From an uncultured Clostridia bacterium (GTDB lineage: Bacteria > Bacillota > Clostridia > Christensenellales > UBA1242), in assembly GCA_944380265.1 (NCBI GenBank), contig CALWGY010000001.1, positions 3,790 through 67,789 of the forward strand: a stretch of 64,000 nt of DNA, given 5' to 3'. This document shows, piece by piece, positions 47,668 to 64,000 of the stretch (positions are counted from its first letter, which is position 1; the number at the start of each line of letters is the position of its first letter). Under the pieces are notes generated by a model. That model had not been told where the DNA came from and did not search any database. It saw only the letters and a list, made by a program, of their open reading frames with translations. A program made the position numbers and the translations under genes.

Positions 47668-50600
47668 ATGCGAAATAAAAAACCAAATTTTAGAGTAAAA
47701 CATCCATATCAAAATTTAATTAATAGTATTTTTATGGGACTAGTACTGCTACTAAGCAGTATTTTGTCCGTTTTTTTAATTAAGCCAAACACAAATTCAA
47801 TTGGCTTTGTTGATGCTTATGGCGGAAATGGAACTGAGGAAAGACCATACTTAATTTACAACTTAAACGACCTTAAAAATGTTAACACATTTTCAACAAG
47901 GGCAAAGGTTGCAAGTTTGTCTCCAAGGCATTTTAAACTTATGGCAAACGTTGATGCAACAAGTTTGAATAATGTTGTTTCAAAAGAATTTCAAGGCATT
48001 TTTGATGGTAATGACAAAAATTTAAAAGTTGAATATAATTTATTTAATGAAATTGAAGAAGGTTCAACAATTCAGAACTTAAATATAGATGTTAACTCTC
48101 GCATTTCAGAAAACACAGGCTATTTAGCAAACATAAATTATGGAACAATTAGCAATGTTTCATTGATTTCAACAAATCCTAAATTCTATGGTGAAGAGAA
48201 TGCGGTTTTGTACAATAAAATACTTGAAAACAATACTAAAATTGAAAATTTGAGAAAAACTAATGGACTTATTGTGGAAACAGAAGAAAATAATTCTGAA
48301 GAAACATCCGATAATTCGGAAAATTCCGACAATATATCAAATGAAACTAATCAAAAAATAAATAAAGTATCTTCAGAACAAATTGATTATGTTGCTTACA
48401 AAGAATCTTTATTGTTCCCTGAAAAATTAACAGAATCAAACAATTCTGTTGAATATTTTATAAATTTAACTGAAGATGAAGTTTTTGCTTCAAAAAATGA
48501 AATAATAAATAATCCAAACATACTATCAAGCTCTGATGGTAATGTTTCTTTTGTTTCTGAAAATCTTGTATACGTTATAAGTGAAGATAATTTAATTAGT
48601 TTTGATGAACTGGAATTTGAAGTAAAACAAGAAAACTATGTTAATAGGATAGATTTTTTAAATAATGAAATAGCAAGAAAAGATTTAACCGATGAACAAC
48701 GTTATGCATATATTGTTGAATTTTATAATTTACAAAATTCATATGAAGAATACTATACTGAATATTGCAATAGATTAAACGGGAATAATAATGCGATATT
48801 CAGTAATGGTGTTGATTTAGAAATGTCAAACTTAGAAAGCGAAGTAAATATTTTAAGTCAACAATTACAAGATAATAGTTTCAGTTCTCCTCTAGTTATT
48901 TATAATGCTTCAACGGGTGTAATTGAAAAAACATCGGTTGGCAACGATTCTGAAATGGATACTCAATCTGATTCAAACACAAGTGTTAAAGTCTCTTCTG
49001 GAGTTTATGCTGAACACAGTTATGGAACAAACACATCAAGTTCATCAAGTATAGGTGGAATTACAAGCACAAATAGTGGTCTAATAATTGAATGTATTAA
49101 TAAAAACAATGTTACTTGCACTGGATCATCTGGAAATAGATATGCTGCAGGTATTTGCTTAACCAACACAGGAAACATAGTTGATTGTTATAGTGGAAAA
49201 GCTTCAAATGGCACAAAAAGAACAGTTTCTGTGACAAATTCAAGCTACTTAGGAGATGCTGGTGGAATTGTTAGATTAAATTCAGGAACTATTAGAAGAA
49301 CAATTAATTTTGGTGACGTTAAAGCACGTTATGGAAACAATGGATCAGCCAGAACAAGTGTGGGATCTGGTGGTAGTGGCGGACTTGGAACAGATCAAAT
49401 AGGAAGCGGACTTATTGGACGAGGTGGTTCTAGAGGTACATATGGCAGATATGGTTATTATGGCTATAGTGGGGGATCTGCAGGAGCCATTTCTGTTGAT
49501 AATATTGGCACTATAACAGGTTGCTATAACTATGGTTATATTCAATCTGGATCAGGCGGAAGAGGTAGTGGTGGTTCCGGCGGCGGCGGCGGCGGCGGCG
49601 GCGGCGGCGGCGGAAATGCAAATTTTGGTGGCGGAACTTCTAGTGGTGGTAAAGGAAAGGATGGAAAACCATCCTCATCAACTAGCACGACTGGTGGATC
49701 TGGTGGATCCGGGGGATATCGCGGTAGAGGAACTAACTATTGGTTGTCAGCTGGCGGCGGCGGTGGTGGTGGCGGCGGCGGCGGCGGTGGTGGTGGCGGC
49801 GGTGCTGGTGGATTTGCAACAATAAGCTCAAACACAACATTCCCAAACCCATATGGCAAAAATGGCGGTAGTGGTGCTAGTGGATCTAATGGTGGCAATG
49901 GATCAGGAAGTTTTATGGGTATTGGTGGATCTGGTGGATCTGGTGGATCTGGTGGATCTGGTGGATCTGGTGGGGCCAGAGCTTATAATGGTAGTGGAAA
50001 TGTCGGAAATTCAGGTTCTTCAGGAGATAATGGAAAAAGTGGAGGTAATGGTATTTGTGATAAAGGTACCAGCGGATACGACAATGGTGGCAGCGGCGGC
50101 GCTGGTGGTAAAGGTGGCAATGGCGGAAAAGGTGGATCTTCTGAAACTGCGGGATCCCAAAATGCAACAGTGCCAAAAACAAAATCAAGCTATTCTTCTT
50201 TTAACTGGATTTCAATTTGGTTTATGGGGGGAAATGGACCTGAATTAAGGTTTGATAAAGATGCAAACCATAATGCTTATTTTTATATTAAATTTAGTAT
50301 AACATTTAACGGTAAAGCTATTAACGATAGAACTATTTCAGCAAGCAATTTTTCATATTTAACAAGTAATGTATCTATTAGTTATGCTGGACAAAATTTG
50401 TATAATTTAATTGCCACAAGCTCAGGTGTTAAAGTTCCATCTGGACAACAAGTTACTATAACTTCTTCACATCGAATAACAGTGGATGCAACTTCATCAT
50501 ATAGTTCAGGTACTCAATCTGGTAGAAGTTATGATTTTAATTCGCAATCAGGTACGAGAACGGAAACTTCTTCAAGGAATTCTTCATATACATATTCTTA

Positions 50601-64000: not shown

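Follow-up and report, generated by a model that had tools for sequence, protein, structure and literature searches.

The giant adhesins and fibrils of Gram-positive bacteria, such as Ebh of S. aureus and the serine-rich-repeat proteins (SRRP), e.g. that of L. reuteri (PDB 5NXK), are typically built from many tandem copies of one or few domains. Giant proteins of 10,000-30,000 amino acids are also known in Clostridia from mammalian gut metagenomes, where they are reported to consist of arrays of RCC1, Listeria-Bacteroides repeat, YG repeat, dockerin and leucine-rich repeat domains (West-Roberts et al. 2023, bioRxiv 10.1101/2023.11.21.568195). We analyzed a stretch of 64,000 nucleotides from an uncultured Clostridia bacterium (GCA_944380265.1, contig CALWGY010000001.1, positions 3,790 to 67,789), here called the window, the last 16.3 kb of which are occupied by the first part of a single giant gene. 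Its product resembles the cited Clostridia giants in habitat, class, proposed surface or binding role and similar size range. Giant gut Clostridia proteins are therefore already known; what is new here is a non-repetitive, clade-restricted orphan bulk that occurs in discrete allele types, in a protein where Pfam sees only near-threshold GLUG sequences.

The initial annotation, made from the letters alone, had proposed a frame without stop codons from the ATG at 47668 through base 64000. Independent re-translation gave the same result, 5,444 codons with 0 stops, while the remaining five frames of the same stretch contain 272 to 735 stops. With a stop probability of 0.081 per codon derived from the regional base composition (about one stop every 12 codons), the probability of such a frame being open is about 1e-200. 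The nearest in-frame stop 5' of the ATG is the TAG at 47614, no ATG, GTG or TTG lies between them, and the AAGGA 10 nucleotides before the ATG is present, all as had been read. The frame was missing from the supplied list of open reading frames (ORFs) because, as was suspected, the listing program reports only closed ORFs and omits those that run off the window edge.

Homologous loci were found through an exact-match look-up of the neighboring SigA protein in an assembly collection, where the exact SigA of this species occurs on 96 contigs in 163 collection blocks. The look-up returned six long contigs (L001-L006) from ENA metagenome assemblies that are independent of each other. Their flanks show about 98% DNA identity to the window, and they therefore belong to the same species. 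In all six the ORF starts at the same Met, and in five it is called as one product, of 9,752, 9,632, 9,833, 9,754 and 9,757 residues. Contigs that carry the gene include ENA ERZ24773478 BRZ_NS__NODE_12_length_437306 (reverse strand, about 385,263 down to about 356,000), ERZ15237116 NODE_13_length_350941 and ERZ15236937 NODE_210_length_84249. In the sixth (L004) the gene is split into 503 and 9,097 codons by a single in-frame TGG to TAG change. The gene is about 29 kb long and its product has about 9,750 residues (about 1 MDa); it does continue past the window, as had been claimed, and the sizes called in the independent assemblies (9,632-9,833 residues) imply that the window contains about 56% of it. 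The third-position GC content of the giant gene (0.18) is like that of its neighbors (0.18-0.25), which indicates that the gene is native and rules out a recent horizontal acquisition.

The reality of the gene could still be questioned if the frame were a chimeric assembly, a decaying pseudogene or open by chance. The TAG of L004 (at about 15798-15800) falls directly after a GGC repeat, within a small cluster of mismatches with respect to the near-identical strain L002, one further scaffold leaves the gene within a poly-Gly tract, and the assemblies of relatives break inside the gene. However, the L004 change, whether a true nonsense mutation or an error of sequencing, involves no frameshift. 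The improbability of the open frame, the intact product of 9.6-9.8 thousand residues with the same start in five independent assemblies, a dN/dS (ratio of nonsynonymous to synonymous divergence) below 1, the native codon usage and the collinear orthologues in at least three other species leave an artefact effectively refuted. An in-frame stop or frameshift and a chimeric assembly were the dangers named in the initial annotation; no stop was found, and the ORF is present at this locus in six independent assemblies.

The visible 5,444 residues amount to 593 kDa with an isoelectric point of 4.8, and contain 10.9% Asn, 10.4% Ser, 9.6% Thr and 9.4% Gly, together 40%, in agreement with the Asn/Thr/Ser/Gly-rich composition noted at first sight. 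The accompanying remark that charged stretches are few held only roughly, as Asp plus Glu reach 9.7%, Lys plus Arg 6.9%, and an acidic insert lies at residues ~190-450. At its start the protein does have a basic stretch and then a hydrophobic segment. This segment, at residues ~17-38, is the sole Kyte-Doolittle peak above 1.4 in the visible protein, and no part of the protein is better conserved among strains and sister species than the N-terminal segment (57-81% identity, versus ~30% for the rest). Judged from sequence, residues 1-38 would be either a Sec signal peptide or an uncleaved signal-anchor. Export is proposed because this lone hydrophobic segment is also the best conserved, no other transmembrane-like segment is present and the protein is acidic.

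Farther downstream lies a Gly-rich hinge (Table 1) encoded by pure tandem repeats, (CGG)12, (GGC)~17 and (TGGTGGATC)5.7, at 49578-49973; these are triplet and 9-nucleotide DNA units within a 30%-GC genome. The lengths of the poly-Gly runs vary with allele type (8-17), and an equivalent Gly-rich region is found inside residues ~340-830 in every strain examined as well as in the sister species L008 and L010. Phase variation by frameshifting in the poly-Gly tract was considered and ruled out: the repeats are triplets, and the lone split gene results from a point TAG. A separate observation concerns the scaffold L015 (10001-16459; ENA ERZ16268079 scaffold_13; protein P0001), in which the giant gene breaks off within the poly-Gly tract, past residue ~633, and is followed by D5_N/DUF5906 primase-like genes of opposite strand. 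The junction is either a scaffold misjoin at a low-complexity repeat or the insertion of a mobile element.

Profile searches and structure prediction place four GLUG-type beta-helix modules (1, 2, 2b and 3) in the visible protein, where they represent about 23% of the length. GLUG (PF07581) had been suggested as a family to look for, and the guess was right by profile search, AlphaFold and Foldseek, with Pfam alone falling just under its threshold: PF07581 scored 19.6 bits at residues ~1243-1268 (cut-off 20.5) and 11.2 bits at residues ~2626-2650, and it reached 22.1 bits in the orthologue of L008. A profile made from the three head modules matched 330 proteins at E<=1e-3 (best 1.4e-41), and the majority of the 120 listed matches are annotated as PF07581. 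These also bear dockerin, T9SS, SLH, Flg_new, Mfa or M26_N domains, and are therefore secreted or surface proteins. In hhalign comparisons, tiles of the window protein matched the GLUG family with probabilities of 92-99.9%, the divergent module 2b giving 92-93% (E ~3e-7). Module 1 is hypervariable among strains and is broken by the acidic insert mentioned above, which looks partly helical and has a weak DUF3450 match. The AlphaFold model of module 2, made from an alignment of 89 sequences, is a beta-solenoid (predicted TM-score 0.80; pLDDT, the predicted per-residue confidence, 77.7). The best Foldseek match of this model was 3N6Z, a 'putative IgA1 protease' of B. ovatus (E 5.2e-7, TM-scores 0.54/0.63), followed by the beta-helices of the IgA1 (immunoglobulin A1) proteases 7UVK, 6XJA_P and 7UVL_P from G. 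haemolysans and S. pneumoniae (probability 1.0). Matches to pectate lyases and phage depolymerases were weak, and an SRRP was also among the weak matches. The pectate-lyase, Big and Cna-B domains that the initial annotation listed beside GLUG were not found by Pfam in the visible part; its idea of an extracellular beta-rich fibre or adhesin is compatible with the four predicted modules.

The modules share with those of BACOVA_03286 (3N6Z) and of the M26 IgA1 proteases (6XJA, 7UVK) the head motif GxGTxxxPYxI...L, the (V/I)GG(I/V)(A/V)G rungs and, in the model, the right-handed beta-solenoid fold. Whereas the solved GLUG proteins have one module, here at least six would be distributed along a chain of about 1 MDa. 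These structural matches, the Peptidase_M26_N domain (PF05342) of some profile matches, the gut habitat of the host and the occurrence of beta-helices in pectate lyases and phage depolymerases (the weak matches just mentioned) could suggest a giant secreted enzyme, an IgA- or mucin-type metalloprotease or a glycan depolymerase, in which the GLUG modules serve for gating or binding and the catalytic domain lies in the unseen C-terminus or in an orphan stretch. We consider this unlikely. The IgA1 protease beta-helix is itself non-catalytic, a gate that moves to admit the substrate, and catalysis requires the HExxH-bearing domains (PMC7695701). HExxH is absent from residues 1-5444 and from a 1,136-residue extension read in the relative L016, and no M26, other peptidase or lyase match was obtained with Pfam or NCBIfam in the window or in the relatives P0012, P0013, P0196 and L016. 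In contrast with the M26 IgA1 proteases, the parts examined contain no M26 catalytic domain, HExxH, G5 or LPXTG, and GLUG modules occur mostly in non-enzymatic surface proteins.

About 72% of the visible protein (~3,900 residues; ~840-1040, ~1740-2390 and 2761-5444) is orphan, non-repetitive and clade-restricted. Pfam (E<=0.01) and NCBIfam gave no matches over the whole visible protein. The PDB sequence search matched only the Gly-Ser linkers of single-chain antibody fragments (scFv) to the poly-Gly tract, and the PDB profile search gave nothing. Neither self-BLAST, phmmer, jackhmmer via orthologues nor tile-versus-tile hhalign detected internal repeats outside the GLUG modules, the orphan tiles giving probabilities of <=2.4%. 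With residues 4245-5444 as query, an exhaustive HMMER search of 1.84 billion representative proteins gave five matches, all of them orthologue fragments. A word-indexed search with the same residues found nothing, not even the protein itself, and its index returned no product longer than 808 residues. Proteins above ~5,000 residues seem to be missing from both protein search libraries, and the products of 9.6-9.8 thousand residues present in the gene-position index were never returned by the protein searches, only fragments, so that the orphan character of giant genes is overstated. The orphan part nevertheless aligns collinearly with P0196, a protein of another species (32.5% identity over 2,377 columns), and with P0012 (41%), and it is therefore a real conserved protein. 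A phage tail fibre or tailspike was rejected: PHROGs, searched with 10 segments, gave a single weak match of unknown function (E 0.0017), the matches in BFVD were to GLUG-type modules only, and the neighboring genes are housekeeping genes.

The C-terminus lies about 12.9 kb past the window edge. The stop codon was sought in GTDB representatives, where the species is not represented, and in JGI metagenomes and IMG/VR, neither of which held a relative. In the relatives P0012, P0013 and P0196/L016, a fourth head motif is located ~950 residues past the window edge, so that, judged from them, the second large orphan stretch runs ~3,600 residues to the next head. In L016 this head is followed by a tandem GLUG pair that reaches residue ~7,240. 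A run of N at 9098-9160 of L016 (NCBI GCA_003524025.1 DOFM01000121.1) is a scaffold gap at the apparent end of the 3,031-residue P0196, and past the gap the ORF resumes in another frame for 1,136 residues, so that the two 'genes' make up a single gene. In this extension of the relatives to residue ~7,240, neither a Pfam domain nor HExxH nor an anchor motif was identified. No sorting signal was found in the visible part, and LPXT[GAN] does not occur in residues 1-5444. The proteins P0012 and P0013 come from one bin (NCBI GCA_022767405.1, contigs of 5,965 and 3,990 bp) and cover the same part of the gene with a clearly different middle sequence, and the two sequences stop at one and the same position within the fourth head motif (...FSGYFDGNG). 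The pattern points to two alleles or two paralogues in this bin, and to an assembly break at a repeat within the gene.

A syntenic open giant ORF is present in the sister species L007, L008 and L010, known from metagenome-assembled genomes (MAGs), in which the neighboring Zn-ribbon protein is 67-77% identical; it is absent at this position in the more distant L012 and L013 (51-54%). Between species the giant protein shows ~30-33% identity, its first ~140 residues 57-67%. Within the species, housekeeping genes have a synonymous divergence (dS) of 0.025-0.056 and a dN/dS of 0.015-0.046. The giant gene, by comparison, is an alternation of blocks of dS ~0 and blocks of dS 0.3 to >1 with a dN/dS of ~0.3-0.45. 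Such a pattern is the mark of recombination between old alleles, and within the species the gene is a recombination mosaic. At least four allele types, 25-40% identical or unalignable, can be told apart by their N-terminal ~1,000 residues: 1) type A in the window, L003 and P0001, 2) type B in L001 and L006, 3) type C in L005 and 4) type D in L002 and L004. The architecture of anchor, GLUG head and Gly hinge is common to all four.

Strong polymorphism between strains, together with giant size, a conserved N-terminal export region and beta-helical modules, would also be expected of a polymorphic toxin or contact-dependent antagonism filament with a variable C-terminal toxin and an immunity gene downstream. 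Such an identity is very unlikely, since the hypervariable part found here is N-proximal (residues ~100-1000), the typical site of variation in this class being the C-terminal tip. Moreover, Pfam and NCBIfam found no Rhs/YD, LXG, haemagglutinin-repeat/FHA-type or pre-toxin domain in the 5,444 plus ~1,800 residues read, and there are no secretion-system genes upstream.

Taken as a whole, we favor, with a probability of roughly 0.6, a giant fibre or adhesin-like protein that is exported, exposed at the surface and subject to diversifying pressure. The conserved basic and hydrophobic N-terminus would export an acidic protein of about 1 MDa, the segment being either retained as a signal-anchor or cleaved. 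Outside the cell the protein would form a long multi-module fibre, with non-catalytic GLUG right-handed beta-helices, single or in tandem (the window has at least four, and relatives have at least two more downstream), acting probably as ligand-binding or structural 'knots'. The ~225-residue Gly-rich hinge, ~600 residues from the anchor, may confer flexibility, and very long non-repetitive, lineage-specific, strand-rich stretches would separate the modules. Because the product would be exposed, phage, host antibody or competitors may select for its diversification, and homologous recombination would shuffle alleles into discrete types within one species. The protein is like Ebh and SRRP in its very large size, predicted N-terminal export signal, beta-solenoid regions, low-complexity linkers and strain polymorphism. 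Unlike these and Bap-like proteins, it has no tandem domain arrays, only the GLUG modules being recurrent, and unlike SRRP it has neither a Ser-rich repeat region nor accessory-Sec genes nearby.

Several points weigh against this reading. Its non-repetitive build differs from that of the tandem-repeat giant adhesins. AlphaFold gave no usable fold for the orphan region (alignment of 6 sequences, pLDDT 32); the low-confidence model was mostly strands and was left out of the fold search. The final ~4,300 residues are unread in this species, ~1,800 of them having been read in relatives and the last ~2,500 in none, and whether the N-terminal segment is cleaved or retained was assessed only visually. 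The mosaic structure indicates recombination of old alleles but is no proof of positive selection. Finally, we infer from these data that the protein is exported and surface-exposed and that it serves in binding or adhesion, and we likewise infer why it varies.

Glycine-rich low-complexity tracts are found in some spore-surface proteins. The Gly-rich tract of the giant protein and the sporulation genes in the window (SpoIIP, SpoIVA, YqfD, YabP and YqzL) could thus point to a coat- or exosporium-like filament made during sporulation instead of a vegetative surface protein. This seems highly improbable: the N-terminal signal or anchor indicates Sec export across the cytoplasmic membrane, collagen-like GXX repeats and known coat domains are lacking, and these sporulation genes represent ordinary conserved synteny unlinked to the giant gene. 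A bolder extension of the fibre or adhesin-like reading, which we regard as decidedly unlikely, is that the ~7,000 orphan residues form undescribed folds of a clade-specific, non-repetitive, allele-switching coat or fibre, whose GLUG helices engage IgA or mucin without cleavage under immune- or phage-driven balancing selection.

Table 1. Features of the giant gene and its upstream region (positions in the window;., no strand assigned).
Feature	Position	Strand	Basis or remark
Terminator-like hairpin closing the dnaG-sigA-trmK-Zn-ribbon string	45862..45881	+	8-bp stem then T-run
AT-rich non-coding region, 1.79 kb, 18.8% GC	45882..47667	.	No gene called in any of six assemblies
Two overlapping sigma-70-like promoter matches, TTGACT-17-TATACT and TTAATA-18-TATAAT	47450..47498	+	10/12 each; weak
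Ribosome-binding site AAGGA, 10 nt 5' of ATG	47653..47657	+	Read from sequence
Giant ORF, first 5,444 of ~9,750 codons, open at window edge	47668..64000	+	Re-translation; independent assemblies
Residues 1-38, basic N-terminus MRNKKPNFRVKHPYQNLINS and 18-residue hydrophobic segment (residues 21-38)	47668..47781	+	Kyte-Doolittle, conservation
Predicted GLUG module 1, residues 52-560, head motif GNGTEERPYLIYNLNDL	47821..49347	+	Repeat of modules 2 and 3
Gly-rich hinge, residues 606-831, 28% Gly in block	49483..50160	+	Poly-G runs of 12 and 17, GGS repeats
Predicted GLUG module 2, residues 1040-1385	50785..51822	+	Profile search, AlphaFold, Foldseek
Predicted GLUG-like module 2b, divergent, residues ~1440-1720, tandem with module 2	51985..52827	+	hhalign
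Orphan stretch 1, residues ~1740-2390	52885..54837	+	Unlike GLUG, rest of protein, any library
Predicted GLUG module 3, residues 2395-2760 (GGNGTDASPYLISNAKQL; three VGG[IV]AG cores)	54850..55947	+	hhalign probability 99.4-99.6%
Orphan stretch 2, residues 2761-5444, ~2,700 visible residues	55948..64000	+	Non-repetitive, acidic, presumably strand-rich; collinear counterparts only in sister species

Elsewhere, the window consists of ordinary chromosomal sequence from a sporulating member of the Clostridia, and the AT-rich Firmicute host that had been assumed agrees with the sporulating Clostridia MAG lineage. Besides YabP and YqzL, it encodes AcnX, LysM-GH18, NrdR, SpoIIP, EngA, PlsY, SpoIVA, Alr, YqfD, YbeY, Era, RecO, PpdK, DnaG, SigA and TrmK, and a single tRNA-Lys. 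An aconitase-X pair, the AcnX large subunit and the swivel-domain subunit, is located at 468-2191, and the ORFs at 2418-3035, 7908-8498, 9699-10322 and 22368-23390 have no Pfam match. The giant gene comes after the dnaG-sigA-trmK-Zn-ribbon string, which ends in one of the four terminator-like hairpins of the region (0.2 expected from shuffles). The non-coding region that follows is presumably the promoter and leader of the giant gene. It is ~98% conserved among strains, and matching gaps of ~0.7-1.2 kb occur in sister species; its length is unusual in an otherwise gene-dense window. The sigma-70-like matches in the region are in total no more numerous than in shuffles. An invertible promoter or a riboswitch was looked for in this region and found unsupported: there was no Rfam match, the inverted repeats were only AT-rich and of low complexity, none of them convincing, and no inversion was seen across the six strains.

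A species that recurs in gut metagenomes devotes ~29 kb to one protein, most of which cannot be placed by the libraries and searches used. There is also a practical blind spot, as ORFs left open at contig ends go unlisted and products above 5,000 residues are never returned by the word-indexed search. The giant protein is a source of unexplored folds, and its size, non-repetitiveness, clade restriction and allele types make it a candidate determinant of strain-level interaction with host, phage or the immune system.

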